33,887 nt of DNA from an uncultured Solibacteraceae bacterium (GCA_964627685.1 CAZVKM010000002.1:1-33887), one strand, 5' to 3'. Counted from the stretch's first letter, positions 1-24,215 are shown. The notes: generated by a model not told the origin, from the letters alone. Numbers and translations are program-made.

Positions 1-567
1 GGCGGTGCGGACGATGAAGCCCTCGGCGTCGGCCGCATGCATGCGGATGAGGTTGCGGAGGCGCTCCCGCTCCTCGGGGGCCGTGATCTTGCGGCTGATG
101 CCGATGGGGTCGATCCCGGGCATGTAGACCAGGAAGCGGCCGGGGACGCTCAGGTGGCGGGAGAGCCGGGGGCCCGTGGTGCCGATGGGGTCCTTCACCA
201 CCTGGACGAGGACTTCATCCCCCTCATGGAGGGGGGGCAGGGGGGGCGGGGGGGCCGGAAGCTCTTCGGGTTCCTCGCCGGGCTCCGCCTCCTCCTCCGT
301 CAGCTCCGAGCCGAGCCCGGCGGCCGCGAGGCGCTGGTTCACGGGATCGTCCAGGTAGAGGAACCCGTCCTTCTGGGTCCCGATGGCGATGAAGGCGCTC
401 TGCATCCCGGGGAGCAGCTTCGCCACCCGCCCCTTGAACACGTTGCCGACCAGGCTCTTGCTCGTGGCCCGCTCGATGAACAGCTCGCAGAGCTGACCGT
501 TCTCGAGCAGGGCGATGCGGGTCTCCATTGGGGTCGCATTGACCACCAGGGACTTCCGGACGTCCAT
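1..567 (-). CDS. rng: Ribonuclease E/G family protein, N-terminal part (gene runs off the left edge)
   Basis: Absent from the ORF track because there is no in-window stop. My reverse-strand translation from the ATG at 567 reads MDVRKSLVVNATPMETRIALLENGQLCELFIERATSKSLVGNVFKGRVAKLLPGMQSAFIAIGTQKDGFLY... This is the S1-domain signature of RNase G/E (GN.[FY]KG[RK]V...LPGMQ.AF.DIG). The frame stays open to position 1 and GC3 is high. Confidence 0.85.
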   Translation of the reverse strand, partial: MDVRKSLVVNATPMETRIALLENGQLCELFIERATSKSLVGNVFKGRVAKLLPGMQSAFIAIGTQKDGFLYLDDPVNQRLAAAGLGSELTEEEAEPGEEPEELPAPPPPLPPLHEGDEVLVQVVKDPIGTTGPRLSRHLSVPGRFLVYMPGIDPIGISRKITAPEERERLRNLIRMHAADAEGFIVRTA

Positions 568-8513: not shown

Positions 8514-8532
8514 GCCCCACCCACCCACGAAA

Positions 8533-8553
8533 TGGGCCCGGCTTCGCCGGGCC
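8533..8553. terminator. Bidirectional GC hairpin terminator between convergent genes
   Basis: GGGCCCGGC ttc GCCGGGCCC (9-bp stem), located between the stop at 8513 (+) and the stop at 8577 (-). Confidence 0.6.
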
Positions 8554-8576
8554 CTTCGCTTGGAGTTCCCTCCCGA

Positions 8577-9083
8577 TCAGTCGAAGAGCACCACGTGGAG
8601 GTCCAGTCCCGGGAGCCGGGGCAGGGGAACGGGCGGGGGCGCGAGGGGCAGGCGGATGGCGGTCTCCAGGTCCAGGCGGGCCCGGGGATCCGTGAGGCGC
8701 CTCAGGATCCAGCGACCCCCCACGCAGACATAGATGCGGGAAGGGTCATTGGGCACGAGGGCCACGTAGCGCCGCTCGCCGGGCCGCCAGTATCCCTGCA
8801 TCCAGGGCGGGCAGGCGTGGCGGTGCCGGGGGCGGTCGTGTTCCCAGTCCCGGTGGTCGTCGCGGTCCTCATCGCGCTCATGGAAGTGGTGACGCTCCTC
8901 CTGGCGCCGCTCCTTCCAGTAGCGTTTCTCCTCCTTCTCGCGCTCCTTCCAGTAGTGGCGGTCCTCCTTCTCGCGCGCCTTCTCCCGGCGGCGCTCCCAC
9001 TTGTCGTCGTGGTCGAGCAGGGCCGGCGGAGCAGGGGGCGTGGTCGGGCTCAGGGATGCGAAGCACAGCATGAGGCTCAGCAC
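8577..9083 (-). CDS. Small secreted protein with a charged His/Arg/Glu-rich repeat region and a conserved C-terminal domain (paralogue of 9092-9451)
   Basis: The GTG at 9083 has AGGAG 5 nt upstream; the ATG at 9071 is an alternative. Signal-like MLSLMLCFASLS. Repeats REKEDRHYWKEREKEEKRYWKERRQEERHHFHERDEDRDDHRDWEHDRPRHRH. The C-terminus IRLPLAPPPVPLPRLPGLDLHVVLFD is shared with the upstream gene. Confidence 0.7.
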   Translation of the reverse strand: MLSLMLCFASLSPTTPPAPPALLDHDDKWERRREKAREKEDRHYWKEREKEEKRYWKERRQEERHHFHERDEDRDDHRDWEHDRPRHRHACPPWMQGYWRPGERRYVALVPNDPSRIYVCVGGRWILRRLTDPRARLDLETAIRLPLAPPPVPLPRLPGLDLHVVLFD

Positions 9084-14300: not shown

Positions 14301-14792
14301 ATCCCCCACGGAGAGCAGCGCCTTCAAGGGGGCCAGGGAACCGGGATCCTCGCCCAGCGCCCGGGGGAGGGTGATGATCCCCCGCCTCAGGCCGATCACT
14401 TCCGGGTGGAGGAAGCGCGCCTGGTTGTCGGTGGCCAGCAGGCCTTCGAGGTGGCGCTGGAACGCCTGACGCTGGACCGCGTTCCAGCGCTCCCAGCTGC
14501 GGGCCAGGGGCGTGCCCGAGAGGGCCTGGATGCTCCAGGCATGGTCCTCGTCGAACCCGAAGTGGGCCTCTTCCGGATCGAGGGGAGTCGCATCCTGGAA
14601 GCGGCCCAGGAAGACCTCCTTGAGGTGGTCCAGGCTCCGATCCTCCAGGCGCGGGGTCCACAGCTGGAGGAGGAAGCGGACCCCATCGGATTCCCGCCGC
14701 ATGAGGTGGAAGGTGCTGCCCCCTTCCCGGGCCTCCCCCAGGTCCTGAAGCCAGGTCAGCCGATGGGCGCCGAATGTGCGGATCAGGTCCAT
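11370..14792 (-). CDS. Large (1140 aa) cytoplasmic scaffold/regulatory protein: AAA_16/STAND-like central region with degenerate Walker A, long TPR-like C-terminal region
   Basis: High GC3 and a varied, Leu/Ala/Glu-rich helical-repeat composition. The segment RGRSQELTYLKSLMLGL....VILLMAEEGLGREQLAAW aligns with the GR..EL..L....vvl..GEaGIGKSrL pattern of AAA_16 proteins, but the P-loop Lys-Ser is replaced (GLGRE). No GxxxxGK[ST] occurs anywhere in the protein. The antisense 1124-aa ORF is Gly/Pro-rich junk. Confidence 0.8.
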   Translation of the reverse strand: MDLIRTFGAHRLTWLQDLGEAREGGSTFHLMRRESDGVRFLLQLWTPRLEDRSLDHLKEVFLGRFQDATPLDPEEAHFGFDEDHAWSIQALSGTPLARSWERWNAVQRQAFQRHLEGLLATDNQARFLHPEVIGLRRGIITLPRALGEDPGSLAPLKALLSVGDPGPGETEGLPWESPRALSDPMGRAIRGRSQELTYLKSLMLGLTAPAPMERVILLMAEEGLGREQLAAWACAVAESEGLWVHRLPLGHEEGPAHLLGRVLEEALHGLEADLYARQPAVARMIARRLPAFAFLTGGRKATTEDLDPEELQGALEALDFAASHHPRLIHLSGLDRSRPEVVALVRELVHRSTLPWLLSLPSGAQGSGLKPMVAQIKQEPHAALVVLNRLEDEDMRRVLEDLLGGHGLPEDLLQELFRVSLGNPGLMLGLLELAQQAGDLLEDHGRWVLAPGRRPNLQAGTDLMKPVFVGRLNRLSPPTQARVRLRARAGPARRVYVLGRALGLAGDPMEDILQAALSSKLVLTQGIEAQIPDPRWRELVLAHTPQPELKRLARALVGALKGSGDRGPISVALQSLAADEQSALAGVLQTLEREGVGSPTEVKRVVDQALQLHPSAMDRARLLEHLADAWAHHSGGGLFGGEATPASPLGQALEALTRADQALAELPSPPPPFQARLLRKRAQLELRRRHLPEARDAVMAAADVLRGAPQHAEHPRIRLALARLYLMQGHLPKGIKALEEGLALLQGQGAKALTADQVDLTLELGRALGNQSQLQRASSLLEGALRMAESGQQVRALVQVELVLSTLRVAQGETEQALRLLQESLQAARLHGDPLLQAQAHLHLGMVKSLQHHLAPAQSHLDRAVERFQRAGEEAAATLARMWRARTVAALGDRVGAEHHQLKALGGQRALLSPLEQGDQAFLQAEVAGFGGSWRDAARLFRQAAQIFDAAGLVWRHRLAQLRLVQADARDGLEAGRPASETTWSLLETLKGPVDGAGSRWLDLEWRKAHGLLLACAPASDPVDQEALGAWGEALALARSLQFPSDLMEAATESARILLRRGERLGAQSRLQDAFPAFQQVWSRVSESQSQAFLGRPDLHRFQETVTASGLRFVLPDRGDPLADWTPTQANLPAVNFPER

Positions 14793-14965: not shown

Positions 14966-15055
14966 ATCTTTCAGTTGATCGAGACGATGTGATCCGCTTC
15001 ACGCGACGGCCCGCCTGTCGCGTCACGGCCCGCTTCCCCGGTCTTGGAGATGCTC

Positions 15056-16459
15056 ATGGACGCTCAAACCAGCATGGCCAACGTCGATTCGAACCCCTGG
15101 GCCTGGTTCGACAAGGAGCACAGTGCCTCGACCCGCTTCATGGTGAGCGGCGCGATCTGGGCCCTGGTCGGCACCTTCTTCGGCCTCTTCGCCGCCACCG
15201 AGTACTGGGCTCCCGACCTCGTCCGCATCCTGCCGCAGCTCCAGTTCGGCCGCATCCGCCCCACCCACATCAACGCCGTGGCCTTCGGCTTCATCTCCAT
15301 GAGCACTGTGGGTGCGATCTTCTACGTGATCCCCGAGCTCTGCCGCACCAAGCTCTACAGCGAGCGCCTCGCGAACGTCCTGATGATCGCCTGGAACGCC
15401 GTGCTCATCGCCGGGGTGTTCTGCCTCACCAACGGCATCACCGAGGGCCGCGAGTACGCCGAGCTGCCTTGGTTCCTCGACATCCCGATGTTCATCGCCC
15501 TGATGACCTACATCGTGATCGTGTGGGGCACGGTGCTGAACCGCCAGGAGAAGCAGCTCTACGTGACCACCTGGTACGTGGCCGGCACCACCCTCTGGTT
15601 CCCCGTGGTCTACCTCATCGGCAACCGCGTGTTCTTCCAGATGGACGGCATCGCCGACTCCATCGCCCAGTGGTTCTACGGCCACAACATCCTGGGCCTC
15701 TGGTTCACCACCAACGGCATCGGCCTGACCTACTACTTCCTGCCCAAGATCACCAAGAACCCCCTCTACAGCCACCTGCTGAGCATCGTGGGCTTCTCCA
15801 CCATCGCGATGTTCTACACCCCCACCGGCACGCACCATCTCCTGCAGATGCCCGTGCCCGAATGGCTCAAGGCCGTGGCCGTGATCAGCTCCGTGATGCT
15901 GCTCGTCCCCGTGATGAGCGTGCTCGTGAACTTCTTCCTGACCATGAAGGGCAAGTGGGGCATGATCGCCACCAACCTGCCCCTGCGGTTCTTCCTGACC
16001 GCGATGTGGTTCTACCTCCTGACCTGCTTCACGGGCCCCTTCCAGGCCACCCGCTGGATCAACTGGTACCTCCACTACACCCACTGGGTGGTGGGCCACG
16101 CCCACTTCGCCCTGCTGGGCACCTTCGGCTTCGTGGCCTGGGGCGCCCTCTACTACTGCGTGCCCCGTGTGACCGGCAAGCAGTGGTACAGCCGCCGACT
16201 GGCCAACGCCCACTACTGGCTGAGCCTCTCGGGCACGGTGATCATGATGATCGCCCTGACCGTGGCCGGCCTCGCCCAGGCCGCCGCCTGGGAGGAGGGC
16301 ACCGTGGTCTACCGCACCGTGATCCAGGTGGCCCCCTTCATGGGCCTGCGCGTCTTCAGCGGTCTCCTGATCGTCGTGGGCCAGGTGCTGCTGGTCTACA
16401 ACATCCTGATGACCGTGTTCGGCTCTGATGCGGCCGACACGATGGAACCCCAGGACTGA
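15056..16459 (+). CDS. ccoN: cbb3-type cytochrome c oxidase subunit I
   Basis: 12-TM haem-copper oxidase pattern: FGRIRPTHINAVAFGF, WFYGHNILGLWFT, YTPTGTHHLLQ and HYTHWVVGHAHFALLGTFGF. GGAG lies 6 nt upstream of the ATG at 15056; the ATG at 15050 or TTG at 15044 are possible. Confidence 0.92.
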   Translation: MDAQTSMANVDSNPWAWFDKEHSASTRFMVSGAIWALVGTFFGLFAATEYWAPDLVRILPQLQFGRIRPTHINAVAFGFISMSTVGAIFYVIPELCRTKLYSERLANVLMIAWNAVLIAGVFCLTNGITEGREYAELPWFLDIPMFIALMTYIVIVWGTVLNRQEKQLYVTTWYVAGTTLWFPVVYLIGNRVFFQMDGIADSIAQWFYGHNILGLWFTTNGIGLTYYFLPKITKNPLYSHLLSIVGFSTIAMFYTPTGTHHLLQMPVPEWLKAVAVISSVMLLVPVMSVLVNFFLTMKGKWGMIATNLPLRFFLTAMWFYLLTCFTGPFQATRWINWYLHYTHWVVGHAHFALLGTFGFVAWGALYYCVPRVTGKQWYSRRLANAHYWLSLSGTVIMMIALTVAGLAQAAAWEEGTVVYRTVIQVAPFMGLRVFSGLLIVVGQVLLVYNILMTVFGSDAADTMEPQD

Positions 16460-16479
16460 GCCGAGCCGAGGAATTGACG

Positions 16480-17796
16480 ATGACCACCCAACGCGCCAAC
16501 TACCTCTACCCCTCCATCGGGATGGGCCTGATCCTCAGCGCCATCATCTTCGTGGTGGTGCTCGTGCCCCGCTGGACCTTCAAGCCGGCCCAGCCCAAGG
16601 ACCTCCGCAACTACACCGCCCAGGAGCAGCGCGGCCGCACGGTGTACCGCCGTGAGGGCTGCTGGTACTGCCACTCCATGGCGAGCCGCCCCCAGGACTG
16701 GGACCACGGCGTGAAGAGCAAGGCCAGCGACTACTTCTACGACCACGATGGCCACCTGCTCGGCTCCGAGCGGAGCGGCCCCGATCTGGCCAACATCGGC
16801 GGCAAGTTCCCCGACGAGTACCACGATCAGCACCACCGGGATCCCCGCAGCCTCAAGCCCGGCAGCATCATGCCCCGCTACGACTACCTCTCCAAGCAGG
16901 ACATGACCGACGTGGTGGCCTTCCTCCAGGGGAACGGCCCCAACGGCACCCGGGCCCTTGACGTCCACTCGGGCGAGATGAAGTGGGCCTTCTTCACCAA
17001 GACCTGGAACCCCGACCTGCCGACCATCCGCACCGTCCCCCGCAGCGAGGTCCAGCCCGGCGAGAAGATCGTGGGCGAGATCAACAAGGATTTCGTGACG
17101 GTGGAAGGGAAGCCCAACGGCTGGGAGTGGGTGGCCAACTGGAAGCACGGCGTGCGTGAGCGCGAGGAGATCGCCTTTAAGAACTACGAGGCGCACCCCG
17201 AGACCCCCTACAAGTACACCGCCGAGATCGAGGAGTTCATGTACGGGACCTCCCACGAGGCCCAGAACGCCAAGACCCCCCTCAACGCCCTGGCCACCAA
17301 GGCCTTCGCCAACGAGGAGGAGCTGCACCACGCCCGCACCGAGAACCCCGACGTGGCCCCCTGGACGGAAGTCTCCTTCAAGGAGCCCGAAGTCCTCCCG
17401 ACGGACGTGGTCGGCCTCAAGGCCCTCGAAGCCCGCCGCGTGGTCGCGAACCAGGGTCGCGGCATCTACAACCAGAAGTGCTCCGCCTGCCACGGCCTCG
17501 ATGGCAACGGCCACGGCTGGGCCAGCGCCAGCATGACCAAGCGGGCCGCCAACTTCTGGGAGGATAAGTTCCAGAACTACAAGACCGACACCTGGTACTG
17601 GCGCATCAGCCGCGGCGTCCCCGCCACGCAGATGCCCCGCTGGGAGCTGACCCTGGCCCCCGACCAGCGCCTCTACCTCGCGGCCTTCCTGAAGTACATC
17701 TCTCAGAACAAGGGCCTGGGCAAGCTGGCCGGCTCCGATGCCCCGAACGCCGGTGCGCCGCCCAGCGCCGCCGCCCCTCAGCCTTCCGCGAAGTGA
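16480..17796 (+). CDS. ccoO: CcoO (FixO) monohaem subunit fused through a ~190-aa linker to a C-terminal monohaem cytochrome c domain
   Basis: N-terminal TM helix plus GRTVYRREGCWYCHSM...SERSGPDLANIGGKF...HHRDPRSLKPGSIMPRY is the FixO signature. The C-terminal IYNQKCSACHGLDGNGHG...YWRISRGVPATQMPRW is a class I cytochrome c domain (CcoP-like). Two CxxCH motifs in total. Confidence 0.88.
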   Translation: MTTQRANYLYPSIGMGLILSAIIFVVVLVPRWTFKPAQPKDLRNYTAQEQRGRTVYRREGCWYCHSMASRPQDWDHGVKSKASDYFYDHDGHLLGSERSGPDLANIGGKFPDEYHDQHHRDPRSLKPGSIMPRYDYLSKQDMTDVVAFLQGNGPNGTRALDVHSGEMKWAFFTKTWNPDLPTIRTVPRSEVQPGEKIVGEINKDFVTVEGKPNGWEWVANWKHGVREREEIAFKNYEAHPETPYKYTAEIEEFMYGTSHEAQNAKTPLNALATKAFANEEELHHARTENPDVAPWTEVSFKEPEVLPTDVVGLKALEARRVVANQGRGIYNQKCSACHGLDGNGHGWASASMTKRAANFWEDKFQNYKTDTWYWRISRGVPATQMPRWELTLAPDQRLYLAAFLKYISQNKGLGKLAGSDAPNAGAPPSAAAPQPSAK

Positions 17797-17976: not shown

Positions 17977-18978
17977 ATGAAGAAGATCCATTCGAACCTC
18001 TCCCTCGCCGTGCTGGCCCTCGGCCTCCTCGGCCTGGGCTGCGCCAGTGAAGGTCTGGGGGGCAAGGCCCCCGCCGGCGAGCTGATCCAGGCCGTGAACG
18101 CCGTCCCCGGCGGCCTCGAAGGCGTGGAACCCGACGCCCCCTATCCCCTCGGCCTCCCCTCGGCCGTAAAGGGCCGTCCGCTCTATCAGGCGAACTGCGC
18201 CTCCTGCCATGGCACCTGGTACACCGCCCAGGAGCGCCTCGATCTGGCGGCGGGCAAGCCCGAGGTGATCGAGCGCCTCAAGGCCGAGCACCGCGAACCC
18301 GGCAACGCCCTGGAGAAGGCCAAGGTTGGTCCCGACTTCGCCGGCCGTGACTGGCGCTTCCAGCGCACCCCCGCCGAGCTGTTCAACCTCGTCGCCTACG
18401 GCAGCGATCGCGTCGTGGCCAAGGGCAACACCTTCGTCCCGGCCATGGCCAAGGACGGCAAGGCCCTCGGCAAGCTCCACCCGGGCCCCGACGGGAAGCC
18501 CGGCATCGGCTGGATCGACCACCTCAAGGACAACCGTGGCAACGTGATGGTGGCGGCCAACGATCCCATGCCCGTGTGGCACAGCATCTACTACGTGTGG
18601 TCCCGTTCCATCGCTGGCGTGGCGCCGGATCAGTACAAGAAGGCCTGGGATGTCTACGGCCAGAACTGCAACGTGTGCCACGGCGTGATGGGCAAGGGCG
18701 ACGGTCCCCTGTCTCGCACGATCACCCCCGCGCCCTTCAACTTCCACAACCGCAAGGCCATGGCGGAACAGACGGATGAGTTCCTCTACTGGCGCATCTC
18801 GGAGGGGGGCCAGTTCAAGTCCATCCCCGAGAGCATCCAGAACACCATGAGCCGTTCCGCCCTGGGACTGTACGTCCACCAGTGGTCCGCCATGCCCGCC
18901 TGGAAGGGCGTGCTCACGCCCGAGAAGCGCTGGCTGGCCGTCGACGGTGTGCGCATGAAGTCCTACGAGCAGGACTAG
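17977..18978 (+). CDS. Dihaem c-type cytochrome lipoprotein
   Basis: Lipobox LGLLGLGC. Two CxxCH motifs (CASCHG, CNVCHG). The second domain ends with a Met-ligand block (WSAMPAW). Confidence 0.85.
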   Translation: MKKIHSNLSLAVLALGLLGLGCASEGLGGKAPAGELIQAVNAVPGGLEGVEPDAPYPLGLPSAVKGRPLYQANCASCHGTWYTAQERLDLAAGKPEVIERLKAEHREPGNALEKAKVGPDFAGRDWRFQRTPAELFNLVAYGSDRVVAKGNTFVPAMAKDGKALGKLHPGPDGKPGIGWIDHLKDNRGNVMVAANDPMPVWHSIYYVWSRSIAGVAPDQYKKAWDVYGQNCNVCHGVMGKGDGPLSRTITPAPFNFHNRKAMAEQTDEFLYWRISEGGQFKSIPESIQNTMSRSALGLYVHQWSAMPAWKGVLTPEKRWLAVDGVRMKSYEQD

Positions 18979-18989
18979 GGGAGACGACG

Positions 18990-19646
18990 ATGCAAGAGAA
19001 CACCCGCCGGACCCTCCTCAAGACCCTCACGGCCCTGCCCATCATCGGCGGCGCCATCGAGCTGCAGCACGTGATCCTTCGCTACTTCAAGCCCACCATG
19101 GCGGGCGGCCTGAAGAGCATGGTGGCCGAGCCCGACAGCGCCGGCAGCTCCGAGCAGGAGATCGCCGATCTCGACGAACTGAAGAACCCCTGGGACTTCA
19201 AGGAGTTCATCTACGTCCGCAAGTCGGTGGAGTACAGCAGCCGCAAGTGGCAGGGCGCCAAGATCCCGGCCTTCATCGTGCGCCTGCCCGAGGAGTACAT
19301 CACCGACAAGAAGGACCCCAAGGGCGCCTACGTCGTGGTGCAGCGCATCTGCCCGCACCTCGGGTGCACCTTCAACTTCATCAGCAACTCGGAAGAGCTC
19401 GCCGGCGGCTACAACTACAAGGCCCCGGCGCCCTTCCACCCCTTTTTCGCGTGCCCGTGCCACCTTTCCGTGTACGATCCGACGCGTCCCCAGCCCATCG
19501 CGGGGACCGTGGCGGGCAAGCCCTTCGACAAGCTGCCGGGCAAGGTGGTCTCCGGACCCGCGCCCCGTCCTCCCCGCACCATGTCCTTCGACATCCGTGG
19601 CACGAAGATCGTGATCACGGATACCGAAGGCGGCGGTGTGGGTTAG
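18990..19646 (+). CDS. Rieske [2Fe-2S] iron-sulfur subunit with Tat signal
   Basis: Twin-arginine motif TRRTLLK followed by a hydrophobic helix. Rieske boxes CPHLGC and CPCHLS. GGGGAGA RBS upstream of the ATG at 18990; the track's 36-aa N-terminal extension was rejected. Confidence 0.88.
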   Translation: MQENTRRTLLKTLTALPIIGGAIELQHVILRYFKPTMAGGLKSMVAEPDSAGSSEQEIADLDELKNPWDFKEFIYVRKSVEYSSRKWQGAKIPAFIVRLPEEYITDKKDPKGAYVVVQRICPHLGCTFNFISNSEELAGGYNYKAPAPFHPFFACPCHLSVYDPTRPQPIAGTVAGKPFDKLPGKVVSGPAPRPPRTMSFDIRGTKIVITDTEGGGVG

Positions 19647-19662: not shown

Positions 19663-21273
19663 ATGCTGACCAAGATCTGGAACGTCCTGCAGGGCCTTCT
19701 TCCGCGCCGTGGCGTGGCCGGCCACGTCTACCACGGCGTCCTCAACGCCCCCGTGAACTTCATCGAGTGGTTCAAGGAGCGCTGGGACAAGATGGACCTC
19801 TTCGACGAGACCCACGTCGAGAAGGCCAAGACCAACCCCTTCTATGCCATCGGCGGCATGTGGTACTGGGTGTGGATGCTCGTGATCGCCAGCGGCGTGC
19901 TGCTGATGATCTACTACGTGCCCGACACCAGCCAGGCCTTCGTGTCCATCGAGCGCATGCAGGCCAACTGGAAGTGGGGTGAGATCCCCATCGGCGCCAT
20001 CATCCGCGGCATGCACAAGTACGGTGCGGACGCCTTCATCATCCTCGCCACCATCCGCGTGTACCGCATCTGGTTCAGCGGCGGGTACAAGGGCGGCCAT
20101 GAGCTCAGCTTCATCGTGGCCCTCCTGCTCCTCATCATCGGCATGTACTCCGGCCTCACCGGCTACCTGCTGATCTGGAACCAGCGCGCCCTGTGGGCGA
20201 CCAAGGTGATGGCGACCTTCCCCACCTACCTGGACAAGAACCCCAGCTGGATACCCGGCGGCGACTTCATCAACTGGACGAACCAGGGCAAGACCACCGC
20301 GCAGATCCTGCTCGGCGGCACCTCCATCGGTCCGGCCACGGTGACGCGGTTCTACGCCTTCCACTTCATGCTGTCGTTCCTCGTGATGATCTTCTTCGAG
20401 CTCCGCGTCTACCATCGCGGCTTCAAGCGGATGAACATCAGCCGCTGGTCGAAGTTCATCCTCTTCATGATCCTCGCGGGCATGGCCATCCTCATCCCGG
20501 CCGCCCAGGGCAGCCCGGCCAACCCCGAGGTCACCCCGAACCCCATCCTCAGCGACTGGTACTTCCTCGCGATGTACCACATGCTCAAGCTCCAGGATCC
20601 CTACCTGGCCACGATCCTCACCGTGGGCGTGCCCGCCCTGGTGCTGCTGGCCCTTTTCCTGGATCGCCGGCCGGAGACGGCCTGGAACGAGCGCCAGATC
20701 GCCAACTGGATCGGCATCGGCGGCCTCATCTACTTCATCGTCTTCAGCTTCCTGATCATCAACAGCATCGCGGACCTCCACCGGGACGCCCCCCTCTGGT
20801 ACTACTCCATGGGCCTCTTCCTGCTCATCGGGTACTTCAAGGACTGGGGCTACGTGATGAAGCGGGACGGGAAGCAGTGGTGGGAGACCTTCCACCTCTT
20901 CTTCGTCGCCTTCCTGGTCGTCTCCATGAGCGCCAACACGCTCTTCCACTACTTCGGCGACATCCGCGAGTGGAACGTGCTGGCCAAGGCCGAGCTGCCC
21001 AAGGTCCTCGCCGCGCACCCCGGGTTCACCCAGGATCAGGCCCTCGACTTCCTCGAGAAGACCAAGCCGGGCCTGAACCTCTGGATGACCCCGGAAGCGA
21101 CCGTGGCCAAGGGCATGCCCAAGGGCCTGGAGCTCTGGAAGATCCACGTCCTCGGGTGGCTCTTCATCCCCCTCGCGGGCACCGTCATCGGCCTGAAGCG
21201 CTGGGCTGACAAGCGGGACGCCCTCCTCGCCGCCGCGGCCGCCAAGGCCAAGGCCAAGACCGCGGGAGCCTAG
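19663..21273 (+). CDS. Cytochrome b (fused b6 + subunit IV type, extended C-terminus); Arg replaces His at the second haem-ligand position of helix B and at +14 in helix D
   Basis: AGGAGGAG RBS. RGMHKYGADAFIILATIRVYRIWFSGGYKGGHELSF aligns residue-for-residue with the b6 helix B block R.IHRW.A......ILHVFRVY..GGFKKPRELTW, but position +14 is Arg. Helix D reads TRFYAFHFMLSFLVMIFFELRVYH (His0, Arg+14, His+17). The Qo-loop PEWY equivalent is SDWYF. About 10 TM helices. Confidence 0.85.
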   Translation: MLTKIWNVLQGLLPRRGVAGHVYHGVLNAPVNFIEWFKERWDKMDLFDETHVEKAKTNPFYAIGGMWYWVWMLVIASGVLLMIYYVPDTSQAFVSIERMQANWKWGEIPIGAIIRGMHKYGADAFIILATIRVYRIWFSGGYKGGHELSFIVALLLLIIGMYSGLTGYLLIWNQRALWATKVMATFPTYLDKNPSWIPGGDFINWTNQGKTTAQILLGGTSIGPATVTRFYAFHFMLSFLVMIFFELRVYHRGFKRMNISRWSKFILFMILAGMAILIPAAQGSPANPEVTPNPILSDWYFLAMYHMLKLQDPYLATILTVGVPALVLLALFLDRRPETAWNERQIANWIGIGGLIYFIVFSFLIINSIADLHRDAPLWYYSMGLFLLIGYFKDWGYVMKRDGKQWWETFHLFFVAFLVVSMSANTLFHYFGDIREWNVLAKAELPKVLAAHPGFTQDQALDFLEKTKPGLNLWMTPEATVAKGMPKGLELWKIHVLGWLFIPLAGTVIGLKRWADKRDALLAAAAAKAKAKTAGA

Positions 21274-21276
21274 GCC

Positions 21277-21567
21277 ATGTATCACCAGGGGCGCATCAAG
21301 GCCAGCAAGTGGGTGGGGATCCTCCTCGCCGTCGTGCTGCTGAGCCAGTCCATCGCCCACTGGAAGGCCTTCTTCGCCAACGCCGGATTCATGAGCTACG
21401 TCGTGCTGATCGCCACCCTCACCCTCTTCCTCCTCCTGATGGTGGGGCTGATGGTGGTGGTCTACGCCGAAGAGAAGGTCCGGGGCAACGTGCAGCATCC
21501 CCGCCCCTGGTTCGAGCGCCTGGCGGACCGCTTCTTCCTGATTCATTCCGATTCATCGAGGGGTTGA
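21277..21567 (+). CDS. Small membrane protein (96 aa, 2 TM)
   Basis: Starts 3 nt after cytochrome b. Hydrophobic helices WVGILLAVVLLSQSI and YVVLIATLTLFLLLMVGLMVVVY. No family recognised. Confidence 0.55.
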   Translation: MYHQGRIKASKWVGILLAVVLLSQSIAHWKAFFANAGFMSYVVLIATLTLFLLLMVGLMVVVYAEEKVRGNVQHPRPWFERLADRFFLIHSDSSRG

Positions 21568-21569
21568 CC

Positions 21570-21935
21570 GTGAAAAAACGGAACATCTTCGGCACCATCT
21601 TCCTGGTCTTCGGCCTTGGGATCTTCTTCGTGCTCGGGGCGAGCAGCATCAGCGCCGAACTCCACGACGTGCTCCATGAGGCGCCCATGGGCGGCAAGCT
21701 CCGTCAGGAGAAGGCTCCCAAGCCCGTGAGCAAGGCCATCGACGCGGTGCTCCCCGCCACCGTGGCGGAGCTTCCGCACATCAAGGCCGTGAACCCCCAG
21801 AGCCAGAGCACCAGCGACAATCCCTTCCAGCAGTTCAACGTCGTCCGCTGGATGGGCTGGGCCTTCGTGATCGCCGCCCTCGCCGAAGTGGGCGTGGCCT
21901 ACTGGACCCGCACCAAGGTCCAGGTGCAGGAGTAG
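21570..21935 (+). CDS. Small membrane protein (121 aa) with N- and C-terminal TM helices
   Basis: GTG at 21570, 2 nt after the previous stop, with a GAGGGG RBS. (M)KKRNIFGTIFLVFGLGIFFVLGASS ... WMGWAFVIAALAEVGVAYW. The track ORF 21309-21935 is the same frame with a spurious extension. Confidence 0.5.
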   Translation: MKKRNIFGTIFLVFGLGIFFVLGASSISAELHDVLHEAPMGGKLRQEKAPKPVSKAIDAVLPATVAELPHIKAVNPQSQSTSDNPFQQFNVVRWMGWAFVIAALAEVGVAYWTRTKVQVQE

Positions 21936-21943
21936 GAGGCACC

Positions 21944-23218
21944 ATGTACAAGAAATTCCTCCAGCTCACCAAGAACCTCACGGTCTCCCTCGAGAAGGGC
22001 GTGAACTTCCTGACCACCCAGGAGCACAACCCCCTGTACTTCCACGGGGCCCTGCCGCTCTACACCTTCTGGTTCCTGATCTTCTCCGGCATCCTGCTGT
22101 GGATGTACTACATCCCCACCCTGGAGCGGGCCTGGTCCAGCGTGAACTACATCACCAGCCTGCCCGTGTTCCTGAAGGACGCCTCCGGCCAGCTGGTCCT
22201 CGACAGGAATGGCGCGCCGGTCATCGACGCCGTCAACGTCGCCACGGGCATCCCCTACGGGGCCGTGGTCCGCGGCATCCACCGCTGGGGCGCCGCCGGC
22301 ATGATGATCACCACGCTGCTGCACATGTTCCGCGTGTACTTCACGGACCGCCACCGCGCCTGGCGCTGGCTGCCCTGGGTCTCCGGCGTGTTCCTGCTCC
22401 TCTTCCTGCTCTTCGTGGGCGTGACCGGCTACCTGCTAGTGTGGGACGCCCGGGCCTACCGCATGGTCGTGGAGACCCAGGAGTTCCTGCGGGCCGTGCC
22501 CCTCGCCGGGGCCTGGATGGCGGACTTCCTCGTGGGTGGCAGCGGCATCAGCGACTACACGATCACCCGCTTCTTCTTCTTCCACATCGGCGGGGCCGCC
22601 TTCCTCTTCGTGCTGATCTGGGTGCACTTCATCCGCCTGCATGAGCCCGTGGTCACCCCGAGCCGCGCCAGCAACTTCCTCACCCTCGGCTTCATCCTGG
22701 TGGCCGCCGGCGCCCTGCCCGCCATCAACATCACCGAGCAGCTCATCCAGCAGTTCCCCGGCCTGGCCTCGGACCGCGCCTACATCGCCTCCGACGCCCC
22801 CGCCCAGATCGGCGTGCTGGTGGGCACGATGCGCTACGACGCCTGGTACATGTTCCCCTACTACCTCATCAACAAGGCGGGCGTGAACGGCGCCTGGGCG
22901 ATCCTCTCCGTCTCGACCCTGCTGCTCATGGTGGCCCCCTTCTACCCCAAGGACCGCCGCGACAACCTGGCCTCCGTGGTGGAAGCCAAGTGCACGGGCT
23001 GCACCTTCTGCTCCCTGGACTGCCCCTTCGAGGCCATCACGATGCAGGAGCGGGCCCCCGGGTCCAAGTTCAAGCTCATCGCCGTGGTGCAGGAGGCCCG
23101 CTGCTCCGAGTGCGGCATCTGCGTCGGGGCCTGCCCCTTCCAGGCCATCGAGCTCCCGAACACGCATTCCAAGACCATCGAAGCTGAAGTGCTCGACCTT
23201 CTGAAGACGGGGGCCTAA
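21944..23218 (+). CDS. Cytochrome b (canonical four His ligands, 6 TM) fused to a C-terminal 2x[4Fe-4S] ferredoxin domain
   Basis: Helix B is RGIHRWGAAGMMITTLLHMFRVYF (His0/His+14). Helix D is RFFFFHIGGAAFLFVLIWVHF (His0/His+14). The ef-loop-like segment is RYDAWYMFPYY. The C-terminus has CTGCTFCSLDCP and CSECGICVGACP (two CxxCxxCxxxCP motifs, about 22991-23137). By helix count the ferredoxin domain is cytoplasmic. Confidence 0.85.
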   Translation: MYKKFLQLTKNLTVSLEKGVNFLTTQEHNPLYFHGALPLYTFWFLIFSGILLWMYYIPTLERAWSSVNYITSLPVFLKDASGQLVLDRNGAPVIDAVNVATGIPYGAVVRGIHRWGAAGMMITTLLHMFRVYFTDRHRAWRWLPWVSGVFLLLFLLFVGVTGYLLVWDARAYRMVVETQEFLRAVPLAGAWMADFLVGGSGISDYTITRFFFFHIGGAAFLFVLIWVHFIRLHEPVVTPSRASNFLTLGFILVAAGALPAINITEQLIQQFPGLASDRAYIASDAPAQIGVLVGTMRYDAWYMFPYYLINKAGVNGAWAILSVSTLLLMVAPFYPKDRRDNLASVVEAKCTGCTFCSLDCPFEAITMQERAPGSKFKLIAVVQEARCSECGICVGACPFQAIELPNTHSKTIEAEVLDLLKTGA

Positions 23219-23623
23219 ATGAGCGAATCCACTGAGAAGAAGCCCCGCGTCATCGTCGGATTCGTCTGCGAGCGGTCCATCCCCATCCAGGAGATGATCG
23301 ATCAGCAGAAGGCCCTCACCGACGATCCCGAGACGAAGATCGTGATCCTGCCCTGCTCGGGCATGGTGAAGCCCACCCAGATGGAGCTGGCCCTCTCCAA
23401 GGGCGCCGACGCCACCTTCGTGTGCGGCTGCGCCATCGGCGACTGCCATTACCGCACGGGCAACCTGATGATCCGCGAGCGGCTCGAAGGTGAGCGCAAT
23501 CCCAAGCTCCGCAAGACCACCGACAAGCGCCGGGTGGGCATGTTCTTCTACACCATGAAGGACCGCCGCCTGTTCCTCGAAGCCCTGGAGTCCTTCAAGG
23601 CCTCCGTGGCCGAGATCCAGTAA
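23219..23623 (+). CDS. MvhD / FlpD-like iron-sulfur protein (methyl-viologen-reducing hydrogenase delta-subunit family)
   Basis: The ATG directly abuts the preceding TAA. PRVIVGFVCERS...IVILPCSGMVKPTQMELALSKGADATFVCGCAIGDCHYRTGN matches the FlpD/MvhD pattern (C.g.v.......Al..GADGV.v.GC..GdCHy..GN). No signal peptide. Confidence 0.8.
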   Translation: MSESTEKKPRVIVGFVCERSIPIQEMIDQQKALTDDPETKIVILPCSGMVKPTQMELALSKGADATFVCGCAIGDCHYRTGNLMIRERLEGERNPKLRKTTDKRRVGMFFYTMKDRRLFLEALESFKASVAEIQ

Positions 23624-23633
23624 GGAGACGACG

Positions 23634-23768
23634 ATGGCCGCGCCCAGCAAGAACGCCGAGCCCAAGGTCAGCAGCTACATGGTCATGCTGCGGTACCTGG
23701 CCTTCTACCTCTTCTTCTTCGGAGTCCTCTACCTCGTGGGCCTCTTCGGCGAAGTGGCCGAGAGCTAG
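23634..23768 (+). CDS. Tiny single-TM protein (44 aa); below the ORF-track size cut-off
   Basis: My translation: MAAPSKNAEPKVSSYMVMLRYLAFYLFFFGVLYLVGLFGEVAES. AAGGAGA RBS 5 nt upstream. Starts 10 nt after the MvhD-like stop. Confidence 0.5.
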   Translation: MAAPSKNAEPKVSSYMVMLRYLAFYLFFFGVLYLVGLFGEVAES

Positions 23769-23784: not shown

Positions 23785-23961
23785 ATGACCGAGACCCTGG
23801 ATCACCAGACGCCCGAGCAGAACGAGGACGCCCCCATCACCAACCGGGAGATCCTCAAGGAGAACTGGGTGCTCCGCAACGCCCTGATCTTCTTCATCCT
23901 CATGCTGGCGGTGCCCACCATCCTGGCTTGGAAGCTGGGCTGGTTCCTCATCGCGAACTAG
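23785..23961 (+). CDS. Tiny single-TM protein (58 aa); below the ORF-track size cut-off
   Basis: My translation: MTETLDHQTPEQNEDAPITNREILKENWVLRNALIFFILMLAVPTILAWKLGWFLIAN. AAAGGAGA RBS 5 nt upstream. Confidence 0.5.
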   Translation: MTETLDHQTPEQNEDAPITNREILKENWVLRNALIFFILMLAVPTILAWKLGWFLIAN

Positions 23962-24017: not shown

Positions 24018-24215
24018 ATGGATCCCATGCAGACCAAGCTCATGGTCATCACCTTCACGGTGGTGGGCCTGGCCTTCGCCGCCGGCTTCGTGATGGTGGC
24101 CGTGTGGGCCATCCGCGCGGGCCAGTTCAAGGATGTGGAGGGGGTGAAGTACCGGATGCTCGAGGACTTCAACGCCAAGGGCGCCCCGAAGGATGGCGGG
24201 GAGTTCAAGGGCTGA
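24018..24215 (+). CDS. ccoS: cbb3 oxidase maturation protein CcoS/FixS
   Basis: 65 aa with one TM helix followed by WAIRAGQFKDVEGVKYRMLED, matching the CcoS signature W....GQ[FY]DD.eg...R.L.D. GGAGG RBS. The track ORF 23928-24215 is the same frame extended. Confidence 0.8.
   Translation: MDPMQTKLMVITFTVVGLAFAAGFVMVAVWAIRAGQFKDVEGVKYRMLEDFNAKGAPKDGGEFKG

Follow-up and report, generated by a model that had tools for sequence, protein, structure and literature searches.

A clade of cytochromes b without the canonical ligands of the inner haem, and its strict gene pairing with a second, ferredoxin-fused cytochrome b

To our knowledge, the known Rieske/cytochrome b complexes are all homodimers of a single cytochrome b with all four haem-ligand His residues. 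Kao and Hunte held these four His to be invariable and discarded sequences without them, on the grounds that loss of a haem would break the Q cycle (PMC4122944). Loss of ligand residues has been reported for Pyrobaculum cytochrome b, a lineage loss that affects the second bH His only (PMC4122944), and for cyanobacterial subfamily K, in which Glu or Gln is found in helix 2 and the haem-accommodating Gly has been lost as well (PMC5600118). Subfamily K proteins are short and mostly have no subunit IV of their own in the genome (PMC5600118); the authors of the two studies suggested haem loss or an obscure haem content (PMC4122944, PMC5600118). No obligate second cytochrome b::ferredoxin partner has been reported for either group. 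The 'PDWF-FeS' clade (PMC4122944) has four His, an xDWF motif, 2x[4Fe-4S], and MvhD; it was described without a Rieske protein in the gene cluster and was not linked to a second, bH-less cytochrome b. In anammox bacteria, the complexes encoded by Kuste4569-4574 and Kustd1480-1485 are proposed to combine a high-potential Rieske protein and menaquinol with a cytoplasmic NAD(P) oxidoreductase (PMC12954380; proposal of Kartal et al.), and they have been modelled as homodimers of a b6-type cytochrome b (haems bP, bN, and cN) with subunit IV and a predicted extra haem at the interface (PMC12954380). The engineered cross-inactivated bc1 with fused B-B subunits (PMC7908018) pairs a working Qo half that has no usable bH/Qi with another half that provides the bH route; it is a laboratory construct of identical subunits that ends at the Qi quinone, its turnover needs bL-bL transfer, and the bL-bL bridge has been experimentally established in such enzymes (PMC7908018). 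In a literature search we found no published description of the ligand loss or the gene pairing reported below, and the text alone gave no basis for equating our clade with Dibrova's clade G' ('large conserved operons of unknown function').

The window (the whole stretch of DNA analysed, 33,887 nt) carries an operon for an oxidase, c-type cytochromes, a Rieske protein, and two cytochromes b, which we call b-1 and b-2; all features given below are on the + strand. The first operon gene (15044..16459) encodes a CcoN-like catalytic subunit of a C-family (cbb3-type) haem-copper oxidase (Pfam COX1, E = 5e-85) and is syntenic in every long related locus. It is followed by a CcoO (FixO)-like protein with a C-terminal cytochrome c domain (16474..17796; Pfam FixO plus Cytochrom_C/Cytochrome_CBB3), in which two CxxCH motifs are found, CWYCH at residue 63 and CSACH at residue 336. 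The best NCBIfam matches of the two oxidase genes are ccoN/cbb3 subunit I and ccoO, respectively, and all NCBIfam matches fall under the curated or equivalog cut-offs. A cbb3 oxidase is expected to combine CcoN with a CcoO-type monohaem subunit, and the upstream genes meet this expectation; O2 reductase activity is inferred. The P. aeruginosa bc1-cbb3 supercomplex is the structural counterpart of this cbb3 adjacency, and 8smr was among the Foldseek matches of b-1. The next gene (17977..18978) encodes a dihaem c-type cytochrome (two Pfam Cytochrome_CBB3 domains; CASCH at residue 74 and CNVCH at residue 231) with an N-terminus that looks lipoprotein-like by eye, and we infer that it presumably links the Rieske protein to the oxidase. 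The Rieske [2Fe-2S] protein (18990..19646), located next to b-1, is divergent (Pfam Rieske E = 0.0015, under the gathering score). It has a twin-arginine leader (RRTLLK) and the cluster motifs CPHLGC (19350-19367) and CPCH (19452-19463), the latter followed by LSVY, whose conservation was checked in 30 orthologues. The Ser and Tyr past CPCH are at what we take to be the positions of bovine S163 and Y165, and are of the high-potential type. Hydrogen-bonding Ser and Tyr at these positions raise the Rieske potential (PMC12954380).

Between b-1 and b-2 lie genes for two small membrane proteins, sm1 (21277..21567, 96 aa, assigned by synteny, with no significant family match) and sm2 (21582..21935, 117 aa, also by synteny, no family match). 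The sm1 gene is always found between b-1 and b-2 in Holophagaceae loci, and in other lineages two small genes likewise fill this slot. In locus L016 the b-1 frame, read from stop to stop and not as a called gene, runs on into the sm1 homologue. Downstream of b-2 (21944..23218) the gene for a FlpD/MvhD-type iron-sulfur protein (23219..23623) begins one base past the b-2 stop codon, and three small membrane ORFs follow (23634-23768, 23785-23961, and 24018-24215), the last of which is FixS/CcoS-like. At the orthologous locus L003 the same places are taken by called genes of 44, 59, and 65 aa, and the last of them carries Pfam FixS. No gene for a cytoplasmic electron acceptor is encoded in the window operon; a FAD/NAD(P)-binding subunit is absent from the window and was seen only in two distant relatives, L036 and L037.

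Cytochrome b-1 (19663..21273) is a full-length protein of 536 aa, with an 8-helix core and extra C-terminal helices; the gene called in a 93%-identical relative (P0001) encodes a protein of the same length. It matched Pfam Cytochrome_B (E = 2e-21) and Cytochrom_B_C (E = 6e-8). Among solved structures the best phmmer match was cytochrome b6 (1vf5_A, E = 1e-26), and both b6 and subunit IV were matched. The AlphaFold2 model (pLDDT 83.6, pTM 0.81) matched bc1 cytochrome b over ∼390 columns in Foldseek (probability 1.00). Thus b-1 has the cytochrome b fold, a four-helix haem bundle with a C-terminal subunit IV-like domain, for which b6f is closest by sequence and bc1 closest by fold. Like canonical Rieske/cytochrome b complexes, the b-1 operon offers a Qo-type motif, bL ligands, a Rieske protein, and c-type cytochromes. 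Unlike them, b-1 lacks both bH/bn His residues and the Cys of the CxGG motif for covalent haem cn (AIGG is found there), and its operon also encodes another cytochrome b, which is not identical to it and has an Fe-S domain.

The preliminary description had reported a gap-free helix B with a conserved His and an Arg fourteen residues on, and codons and alignments agree with it. The haem bL ligand His118 (CAC, 20014..20016) is followed at +14, the bH/bn His position, by Arg132 (CGC, 20056..20058), which is opposite His100 of b6 in the gap-free phmmer alignment to 1vf5_A. Its reading of helix D was borne out by the sequence as well: His234 (CAC, 20362..20364), the second bL ligand, is followed by Arg248 at +14 (CGC, 20404..20406; opposite b6 His202, the second bH/bn position) and by His251 at +17 (CAT, 20413..20415). 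b6 cytochromes have one residue more than bc1 between the two helix-D ligands, and the phmmer alignment placed this single extra residue of b6 just past the first His. In a MAFFT alignment with bovine cytochrome b, R132 and R248 share columns with His97 and His196, so the two independent alignments concur on the ligand columns. We concluded that b-1 has lost the canonical ligation of the inner haem bH/bn and kept the bL ligands; of the four-His axial set for bL and bH only the pair H118/H234 remains. A canonical Qi site in b-1 is unlikely, we infer, because the bH ligands are absent. The Qo-site motif SDWY (20551..20562, residues 297-300), noticed earlier as SDWYF, is kept in the place of PEWY. 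Among 119 full-length relatives D298, W299, and Y300 never vary, and conservation of S297 is at least 90%; PDWY, ADWY, and ADWF occur in distant clade members. The second-position Asp is shared with PDWY, one of the six major natural Qo patterns, and a first-position Ser is not among the common residues tabulated (PMC4122944).

No other His offers itself as a substitute ligand in b-1. The earlier description had stated that its reading would be refuted if His251 or a His in the B-C loop proved to be placed as a ligand, and neither qualifies; its argument from helical periodicity was wrong: +17 is three residues past +14 and lies on roughly the same helix face, one turn on. His251 is not a credible ligand because it is unconserved (K 73, R 14, H 10, Q 9, and T 6 in the 119 relatives), and the column of loop His146 is Gly in 89 of 119. 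H118 and H234 are the only invariant His in these relatives (119/119 each); no Cys is invariant. The sole invariant Met, M161 in helix C, was mapped, by eye only, onto a Met that is present in ordinary cytochrome b and has no known ligand role. R115 and G78 are invariant too.

The loss extends over the whole clade. At helix B +14 the 119 full-length relatives have Arg (97) or Lys (22) and never His, and at helix D +14 they have Tyr (95), Arg (23), or Trp (1). Arg or Lys is found at helix B +14 throughout the clade, encoded by CGC, CGG, CGT, AGG, or AAG among orthologues, and a His restored at this position, which the preliminary description had named as a possible refutation, was not found in any clade member. 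Helix D +14 varies more widely over the whole clade (R/Y/H/F/W/I), and one subclade of ∼40% identity retains His there (pattern HRHH); the helix-B Arg is therefore the defining change and helix D is variable. As controls we used ordinary cytochrome b collected by a metagenome scan with very general peptide patterns. His was present at B+14 and at D+13 to +15 in all 78 control N-domains. The helix-D His was counted over this range since b6-type controls have a 15-residue helix-D spacing, and hmmalign to the b-1 profile gave them an apparent HHHY or HHHF at +14. The ligand difference between b-1 relatives and controls is far beyond chance. Only 29 clusters at E <= 1e-30 among 1.84 billion representatives make up this small clade, and its edge is sharp, with scores that fall from 274 to 185 to ∼100 bits. 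In a rough NJ tree it was monophyletic among 122 representatives; it is apparently a distinct and monophyletic group. It is known from Holophagaceae and from non-photosynthetic cyanobacterial relatives (Melainabacteria, including Vampirovibrionales), and the operon type is present in one Vampirovibrio sp. MAG (P0040, by source name) and in Vampirovibrionales MAGs.

The second cytochrome b, b-2 (Pfam Cytochrome_B plus Fer4 families), had been described as keeping all four His, and it does so: H113, H127, H214, and H228 (codons at 22280-22282, 22322-22324, 22583-22585, and 22625-22627) are invariant in 25 diverse relatives, together with the eight Cys of two CxxCxxCxxxCP motifs (22991-23023 and 23102-23134) that form its C-terminal 2x[4Fe-4S] domain. 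Six helices, A-F, were predicted by eye from hydrophobic stretches, and we infer from their even number that the ferredoxin domain is probably on the cytoplasmic side. A Qo-like xDWF motif is kept in the family; its ef-loop Asp, D299 (22838-22840), shows at least 90% conservation, and the window protein reads YDAWY. In a profile-profile comparison b-1 and b-2 aligned over helices A-F (272 columns, E = 1e-47) with b-1 D298 opposite b-2 D299, and they are therefore paralogous full cytochrome b folds; we infer a pair of a kind that could keep the ancestral dimer interface. The b-1 profile gave b-2-type proteins ∼150-180 bits versus up to ∼244 bits for some ordinary PEWY cytochrome b, so the two are not recent duplicates. 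His34 of b-2 (NPxYxHGA) was considered as the ligand of an extra interface haem like the one predicted for anammox complexes; it was rejected as a general feature, since some family members carry Leu or Thr there and the matching residue of b-1 is Ile or Leu. The adjacent FlpD protein (Pfam FlpD, E = 1.6e-19) is collinear with the Fd-MvhD C-terminus of HdrA2; its Cys 46, 69, 71, and 76 are invariant in 24/24 orthologues and Cys17 is at least 90% conserved. Together, b-2 and FlpD are a split version of the 'PDWF-FeS' proteins, which were described without a Rieske gene in the cluster (PMC4122944), whereas the window and most related loci have one in the b-1 operon.

We examined the gene neighbourhoods for the pairing of b-1 with b-2. 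Genes for b-2::Fd and FlpD were present in 27/27 sufficiently long Holophagaceae and Vampirovibrionales loci, and also at L035, L036, L038, L039, L042, L043, L122, and L123; the b-1/b-2 pair was found in 0/77 control loci. A b-1-type gene without b-2::Fd was never seen in any sufficiently long locus. This strict pairing spans four operon types and at least eight lineages of <50% mutual identity; the operon types of the b-1/b-2/FlpD trio include one with a cbb3-type oxidase and Rieske protein (the window and Melainabacteria) and one with an NAD(P)H-type module. On gene content, b-2 appears to be an obligate partner of b-1, and physical contact between them is inferred.

We propose a two-cytochrome-b unit in which b-1, with a Qo site and haem bL only, passes an electron to b-2 and on to a cytoplasmic Fe-S arm, a reading to which we give slightly better than even chances. 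A b-1/b-2 heterodimer had been offered as a hypothesis in the preliminary description, and none of its refuting conditions that computation can address was fulfilled. Quinol would be oxidised at the b-1 Qo site, and one electron would pass through the Rieske cluster and the c-type haems to the cbb3-type oxidase and O2. The other would land on haem bL, the single haem that we infer for b-1. Since b-1 has no bH and no Qi site, this low-potential electron would cross to b-2, most plausibly from bL to bL at a pseudo-dimer interface; we know of no inter-subunit haem contact in bc complexes other than bL-bL. Within b-2 it may run from bL to bH, the [4Fe-4S]2 domain, FlpD, and a cytoplasmic partner, or in the reverse direction. 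The cofactor motifs were observed; which way the electrons flow, and which cytoplasmic partner takes or supplies them, are inferred. We suggest, as a possibility that falls short of an even chance, that the pair is a natural heterodimer in which O2-driven quinol oxidation yields reductant at the level of ferredoxin or NAD(P)H, with all low-potential electrons using the bL-bL bridge. Where a high-potential Rieske protein works with menaquinol, the bP haem is predicted to have a very low potential and to be able to reduce cytoplasmic acceptors (PMC12954380). The L122/L123 subclade has no Rieske motif within 9 kb, and this makes a bifurcation model that depends strictly on Rieske less convincing for the family as a whole.

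The logic proposed for b-1/b-2 is that of cross-inactivated bc1, in which turnover needs bL-bL transfer; unlike the construct, the b-1/b-2 asymmetry would be natural and ancient, carried by two diverged genes, and have an Fe-S end, with the contact between them inferred. Like the anammox complexes, the b-1/b-2 units have an Fe-S chain on the cytochrome b part (2x[4Fe-4S] of b-2 plus FlpD, the cytoplasmic side being inferred), and the L036 and L037 relatives carry an NAD(P)-binding module. The b-1/b-2 units differ from the anammox complexes in dividing the membrane part between b-1, with the Qo site and haem bL only, and the dihaem b-2 with its fused ferredoxin; in addition, the window operon lacks an NAD(P) module and is linked to an O2 reductase.

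The distribution of b-2-type proteins gives some support to a functional separation of the two cytochromes, which we consider unlikely and do not set aside. A b-1 homodimer with the Rieske protein would then be a Q-cycle-free quinol:cytochrome c oxidoreductase in which both electrons leave by the high-potential chain and bL is a transient store, and b-2::Fd-FlpD would be an independent membrane-to-cytoplasm conduit tied to the oxidase, comparable to its fused relatives. In distant relatives (P0347-P0356) FlpD is fused to a b-2-type protein, and these fused b::Fd::FlpD proteins adjoin genes for an A-family oxidase, CtaB, and SCO1 without b-1 or Rieske, so b-2 can function without b-1. The fused proteins are already known as the Rieske-less 'PDWF-FeS' clade (PMC4122944), and b-2 has its own Qo-like motif. 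Against separate function, no sufficiently long locus in the four operon types showed a b-1-type gene without b-2::Fd. Delivery of both electrons to the Rieske protein is a short circuit that bc complexes avoid by design (PMC7908018), and the bL electron in a b-1 homodimer would have no exit.

The full bL/bH pair of b-2 would also allow a Q cycle across the b-1/b-2 heterodimer, in which the electron ends on quinone at a Qi-like N-side site in b-2 and the ferredoxin domain and FlpD are an auxiliary input or a regulatory branch and not the main exit; we rate this as improbable, a little below functional separation. The oxidase-type operons without a cytoplasmic acceptor gene are in its favour, and ferredoxin input at the N side of b6f in cyclic flow is a long-standing proposal (PMC5600118). 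Vampirovibrio has been annotated with complexes I-IV (PMC4451040), and if b-1/b-2 is its complex III, which is unverified, an energy-conserving role would be needed. On the other hand, b-2 showed no conserved Qi residues of the bc1 type, and the CxGG position reads FHGA, without the Cys for haem cn. A Qi-type His in b-2 ('LHE', D+19) was tried and rejected, as it is T, K, or N in orthologues (by eye). In L036 and L037 the b-1/b-2 pair is joined to Fer4, Fer4_22, and NAD_binding_1/DHODB_Fe-S proteins; a cytoplasmic redox link for b-1/b-2 is supported by this gene content, and the full Fe-S/NAD(P)-binding chain suggests real flux through the arm.

Several invariant residues of b-1 leave room for a second cofactor in the bH pocket, held by unconventional ligation (such as His or Tyr facing a distal Arg, or no ligand from the protein at all) and with a new redox or catalytic role, although we find this doubtful and lower still in likelihood than a Q cycle. 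Arg135 is invariant and aligns with bovine R100, presumably the bH propionate binder. Gly64, invariant as well, is opposite bovine G34, the conserved Gly of helix A that gives space to the inner haem bn (PMC5600118). Unlike subfamily K, the b-1 clade retains this Gly; it also retains the Qo domain and, in most of the lineages sampled (not in the L122/L123 subclade), has a Rieske partner. The buried polar residues Glu246, Asp123, and Lys119 are also invariant in the 119 relatives. Invariance of Gly64 and Arg135 could reflect helix packing or a retained cofactor, and an unconventional cofactor in b-1 is not excluded. Members with HRHH and HRHY offer a possible single proximal ligand, a five-coordinate haem being conceivable in the HRHH subclade, and a cytochrome b bundle can sustain a haem b with His-Lys ligation (PMC4807273). 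But the bH positions are Arg/Arg or Lys/Arg in the window protein and in its relatives from Holophagaceae, and Lys at B+14 did not occur together with His at D+14 in any member examined. Arg is not known to us as an axial haem ligand. The D+14 residue varies unlike a ligand, and with AIGG there is no Cys for a covalent haem. A sequencing or assembly error, a strain-specific mutation, or a pseudogene, for which nothing was found in favour and to which we attach practically no credence, is refuted by conservation, since the same substitutions, with Arg/Lys at helix B +14 clade-wide in five different codons, recur in dozens of independent assemblies from two phyla, with an intact frame, ∼100 positions at least 97% conserved in the 119 relatives, and a confident AlphaFold2 model; judged from the sequences compared, the ligand loss is an ancient trait of the clade.

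The four haem His of cytochrome b have been treated as invariant, yet the strongly constrained b-1 clade without the inner-haem ligands keeps a Qo site, and the b-1/b-2 gene arrangement points to an undescribed routing of quinol-derived electrons. The physiological meaning of bL-bL transfer in the dimer has been called unclear in a recent review (PMC7908018); if the proposed mechanism holds, b-1/b-2 would be a natural example of dependence on such transfer. Rieske/cytochrome b bifurcation to cytoplasmic low-potential acceptors has so far been proposed only for anammox bacteria (PMC12954380), and under the same mechanism it would become testable outside them. The 'complex III/IV' of Melainabacteria has been interpreted as a normal complex III or b6f, and arguments on how aerobic respiration arose in the cyanobacterial lineage have drawn on this unit (PMC6349859, PMC4451040); its true nature would likewise become testable. 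Vampirovibrio chlorellavorus is growable in co-culture, and its lineage carries the b-1 operon type on the evidence of MAGs. If the heterodimer reading is true, Holophagaceae and the non-photosynthetic sister lineages of Cyanobacteria would have a quinone-based bifurcation that serves the production of reductant and not a Q cycle.

The b-1 gene (19663-21273, + strand) encodes a 536-aa protein with the Pfam domains Cytochrome_B and Cytochrom_B_C. The codons read on the + strand are CAC for His118 (20014-20016) and CGC for Arg132 (20056-20058) in helix B, and CAC for His234 (20362-20364), CGC for Arg248 (20404-20406) and CAT for His251 (20413-20415) in helix D; the SDWY motif was read directly from the DNA at 20551-20562. 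In a MAFFT alignment with bovine cytochrome b, R132 and R248 occupy the columns of the bH ligands. A phmmer search of all PDB chains gave cytochrome b6 as the nearest solved relative (1vf5_A, E = 1e-26): helix B aligns without gaps, the bn ligands His100 and His202 of b6 stand opposite R132 and R248, respectively, and subunit IV aligns with the C-terminal part of b-1. The AlphaFold2 model (pLDDT 83.6, pTM 0.81) matches bc1 cytochrome b across ∼390 columns. Because codons, both alignments and the fold match agree, the claim of the preliminary description that Arg stands at both bH positions (B+14 and D+14) is correct.

A word-indexed search returned 888 relatives of b-1, the nearest of them in Holophagaceae (Acidobacteriota) MAGs, by which the window is assigned to this family; Melainabacteria/Vampirovibrionales relatives are found at 45-50% identity. 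Across 119 full-length relatives, no His other than H118 and H234 is invariant; B+14 is Arg (97) or Lys (22) and D+14 is Tyr (95), Arg (23) or Trp (1). The idea of Arg at both positions in orthologues holds for helix B, with Arg or Lys throughout the clade, and not for D+14, which varies. His251 (+17) and the loop His146, named earlier as ligands that could refute the loss, both fail since the former position is His in only 10/119 relatives and the latter is Gly in 89/119. It is this conservation that settles the exclusion of His251; the helical-face argument offered previously is invalid, as +14 and +17 are roughly on the same side of the helix, +17 being a turn lower. Across assemblies, Arg132 is encoded by CGC, CGG, CGT or AGG (Lys at this position by AAG), and five different codons are in use for Arg248. 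Exhaustive HMMER searching of 1.84 billion cluster representatives outlined a clade that is small and has a sharp boundary, with 29 clusters at E ≤ 1e-30 and scores that drop from 274 to 185 and then to ∼100 bits. Among the best 150 representatives, the ligand columns (first and second positions of helices B and D) of clade members read H-[R/K]-H-{R,Y,H,F,W,I}. Beyond the clade almost every full-length sequence is HHHH, the exceptions being four that differ at D+14, one of them also at B+14. Some clade members (proteins P0121, P0122, P0125, P0130, and P0131) are HRHH, so the helix-B Arg is the universal signature and D+14 is free to vary. In a neighbor-joining tree of the N-terminal domain (122 representatives, no bootstrap), all 24 HR/HK sequences fall into one clade with three deep subclades. 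In a control metagenome scan, His was present at B+14 and at a position within D+13..15 in 78/78 ordinary cytochrome b N-domains. We concluded that loss of the bH ligands, judged from these sequences, is a conserved trait and not an accident.

The bL ligands, R115 and G78 are kept invariant in b-1, as is the Qo core D298-W299-Y300, and the neighboring Rieske protein retains CPHLGC...CPCH and a twin-arginine leader. In helix A, G64 and G78 are 14 residues apart, the spacing of bovine G34 and G48; R115 and G78 are presumably near haem bL. Both bH ligands are lost, and b-1, which reads AIGG, also lacks the Cys of CxGG that binds haem cn. G64 and R135 (aligned with bovine G34 and R100, the latter of which binds a bH propionate) are invariant although they belong to the old bH region, and K119, D123 and E246 are new invariant polar residues; these residues are the main reason why the absence of any cofactor at all is not proven. 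In R. capsulatus, replacement of one bH ligand (H212N) is a known haem bH knock-out, and His-Lys haem ligation works (PMC4807273). Lys at B+14 together with His at D+14 was not found among the members examined. It is probable that a conventional bH haem is missing from b-1. Two b-1-type proteins of the L036 subclade, P0144 and P0142, neither with a CxxCH motif, carry insertions of ∼100-270 residues, rich in charged residues, in the A-B loop, an outer (P-side) loop in cytochrome b.

The operon containing b-1 is encoded on the + strand and opens with a CcoN-like gene (15044-16459), a FixO-cytochrome c fusion (16474-17796), a dihaem cytochrome c (17977-18978) and the Rieske gene (18990-19646). 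Downstream of b-1 are two small membrane proteins (21277-21567 and 21582-21935), b-2 with its fused 2x[4Fe-4S] domain (21944-23218), FlpD/MvhD (23219-23623) and three predicted small membrane ORFs (23634-23768, 23785-23961, and 24018-24215), the last FixS-like. Called genes of 44, 59, and 65 aa in the orthologous locus L003 match these ORFs in position, and the last matches Pfam FixS (cbb3 maturation). In the FixO-cytochrome c fusion, ∼180 residues (roughly 145-320) between the two recognised domains have no family match. The Rieske protein is so divergent that its Pfam score is below the gathering threshold (18.9 vs 20.3); it reads CPCHLSVY at 19452-19475, with the Ser and Tyr typical of Rieske clusters of high potential, even though the quinone of this organism is probably menaquinone, as used by Holophagae. 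In the related locus L016 (about 7001-8900), the b-1 stop-to-stop frame runs on into the homologue of the first small protein, either a natural fusion or a MAG assembly error. Upstream of the operon, a divergent 1140-aa protein (11370-14792, - strand) has an L003 counterpart of 1141 aa with Pfam TPR_12 and a faint TPR_MalT match, and could be a regulator. The ∼70% G+C of the window accounts for its many long, overlapping antisense ORFs, which are artefacts.

The four His and eight Cys of b-2 are invariant in 25 diverse relatives, in keeping with the earlier statement that this protein has all four haem ligands. Six helices are predicted (by eye), from which we infer that the ferredoxin domain is cytoplasmic. 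Profile-profile alignment of b-1 and b-2 extends over helices A-F (272 columns, E = 1e-47), which makes b-2 a full cytochrome b without helices G and H and not a mere four-helix module; the b-2 family motif xDWF stands opposite SDWY of b-1, and we add the correction that b-2 is not obviously Qo-dead. The ferredoxin domain and FlpD are collinear with the Fd-MvhD C-terminus of HdrA2, and in distant relatives b, Fd and FlpD are in one polypeptide; the fused b::Fd::MvhD is the "PDWF-FeS" clade of Kao and Hunte (PMC4122944). In the conserved N-terminal motif NPxY[F/Y]HGA (residues 30-36, 22031-22051), His34 adjoins the position of the cytochrome b6 haem-cn Cys; it is kept in oxidase-linked b-2 proteins, but some members of the wider family have Leu or Thr there.

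In 27/27 sufficiently long Holophagaceae and Vampirovibrionales loci the genes stand in the same order, with b-2::Fd and FlpD among them, and loci without these two genes end at a contig edge. A cytochrome b::Fer4 or FlpD gene occurred in 0/77 control loci with ordinary cytochrome b. The pair also accompanies distant b-1-type genes (HRHH at L035 and L039) and is present at L042 and L043. Four operon contexts of b-1 were distinguished: (i) a cbb3-type oxidase, cytochrome(s) c and Rieske, in the window, Melainabacteria and others, most of these loci having a stand-alone cytochrome c gene; (ii) the same with oxidase but no Rieske motif within 9 kb (L122 and L123); (iii) no oxidase (L036 and partly L037), in the order Rieske, b-2::Fd, FlpD, Fer4, Fer4_22, NAD_binding_1/DHODB_Fe-S, then b-1; and (iv) b-2 directly downstream of b-1 on a short contig (L038, HRHW). 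Since the pair and FlpD recur across contexts, the conserved evolutionary unit is b-1 + b-2::Fd + FlpD. At L036 (946-8471) and L037 (1-2117) the distant b-1-type genes are HRHY, with the b-2 pair, and HRHF, and two small proteins follow b-1; we read the NAD_binding_1/DHODB_Fe-S protein as AsrAB/HydBG-like, and this operon connects NAD(P)(H)-type chemistry with the Fe-S arm. A third subclade (L122, 5329-12193, HRHW; L123, 1002-5223, HRHI) has the b-2 pair, the Qo motifs ADWY and ADWF and the order COX1, FixO/c, dihaem c, b-1, b-2::Fd, FlpD, with no small proteins between b-1 and b-2. Distant b-2 relatives at L040 (3416-10554) and L041 (158-5798), from a Rokubacteria MAG and another contig, are single polypeptides (cytochrome b::2x[4Fe-4S]::FlpD) directly 3' of A-family COX1, UbiA-type (haem O synthase-like) and SCO1 genes; no Rieske or b-1 gene was found at either locus. 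The association of the fused module with haem-copper oxidases is recurrent and unexplained.

We showed that b-1 has a predicted Qo-type pocket and the ligands of just one haem, and that b-2, its constant companion, has two haems and an Fe-S chain, inferred to be cytoplasmic. An electron left on haem bL of b-1 by quinol oxidation would have no bH/Qi exit in that protein. In known bc complexes, bL of the partner subunit is the only redox center of the other cytochrome b that haem bL can reach by tunnelling, and the bL-bL bridge was shown with cross-inactivated bc enzymes (PMC7908018); a b-1/b-2 pseudo-dimer would be their natural counterpart. Electrons may then pass from b-1 bL to b-2 bL, bH, the two [4Fe-4S] clusters, FlpD and a cytoplasmic partner. 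Context (iii) shows that the Fe-S arm can join an NAD(P)-binding flavoprotein-type module, a parallel to the Rieske/cytochrome b complexes of anammox bacteria, which have been proposed to reduce NAD(P)+ through bifurcation of quinol electrons; should menaquinone be the quinone here, the symmetry argument made in that work would predict a very low-potential bL (PMC12954380). The bL-only b-1 with hand-over to b-2, as proposed in the preliminary description, is supported as far as sequence evidence reaches; the whole chain, including exchange with the cytoplasm via Fe-S, is the reading we somewhat favor, with flow direction and FlpD partner unknown.

The two cytochromes b could instead work separately, as the Qo-like motif of b-2 and the fused relatives that adjoin A-family oxidase genes at loci lacking b-1 and Rieske would allow; we consider this unlikely, b-1 never having been seen without b-2 in any sufficiently long locus. 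That the pair preserves a Q cycle through a Qi-like site in b-2, the Fe-S arm being an auxiliary input, is not excluded, but no conserved Qi residues were found in b-2 and we hold it to be rather improbable. An unconventional cofactor in the old bH pocket of b-1 would fit the retention of G64 and R135 and the existence of HRHH members; it seems quite doubtful for a window protein that is Arg/Arg in a clade where D+14 varies freely. An artefact or pseudogene is refuted by the conservation and hardly deserves consideration.

The b-1 system, with its hand-over to b-2 as our preferred reading, belongs to the Rieske/cytochrome b complexes as a variant. The Melainabacteria gene cluster was noticed before as a "complex III/IV" combination, its genes being given as b6f subunits or as ordinary complex III in the annotation (PMC6349859; PMC4451040). 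Loss of one bH ligand is known in a Pyrobaculum cytochrome b (PMC4122944), and the helix-2 His is replaced by Glu/Gln in cyanobacterial subfamily K (PMC5600118). Kao and Hunte explicitly dropped sequences in which even one of the four His is missing (PMC4122944), a filter that would have hidden the b-1 clade. We found no report of a cytochrome b clade that is Rieske-associated and Qo-bearing but has no bH ligands, of its obligate partnership with FlpD and a dihaem cytochrome b::ferredoxin, or of its reading as a split, heteromeric bc-type complex, although prior mention is not fully excluded. The b-1 clade contradicts the assumed invariance of the four haem His, and b-1/b-2 offers a naturally occurring system in which to test bL-bL transfer between haems, as well as quinone-based bifurcation directed to the cytoplasm. 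The finding also bears on the respiratory chain of the cyanobacterial sister lineages.
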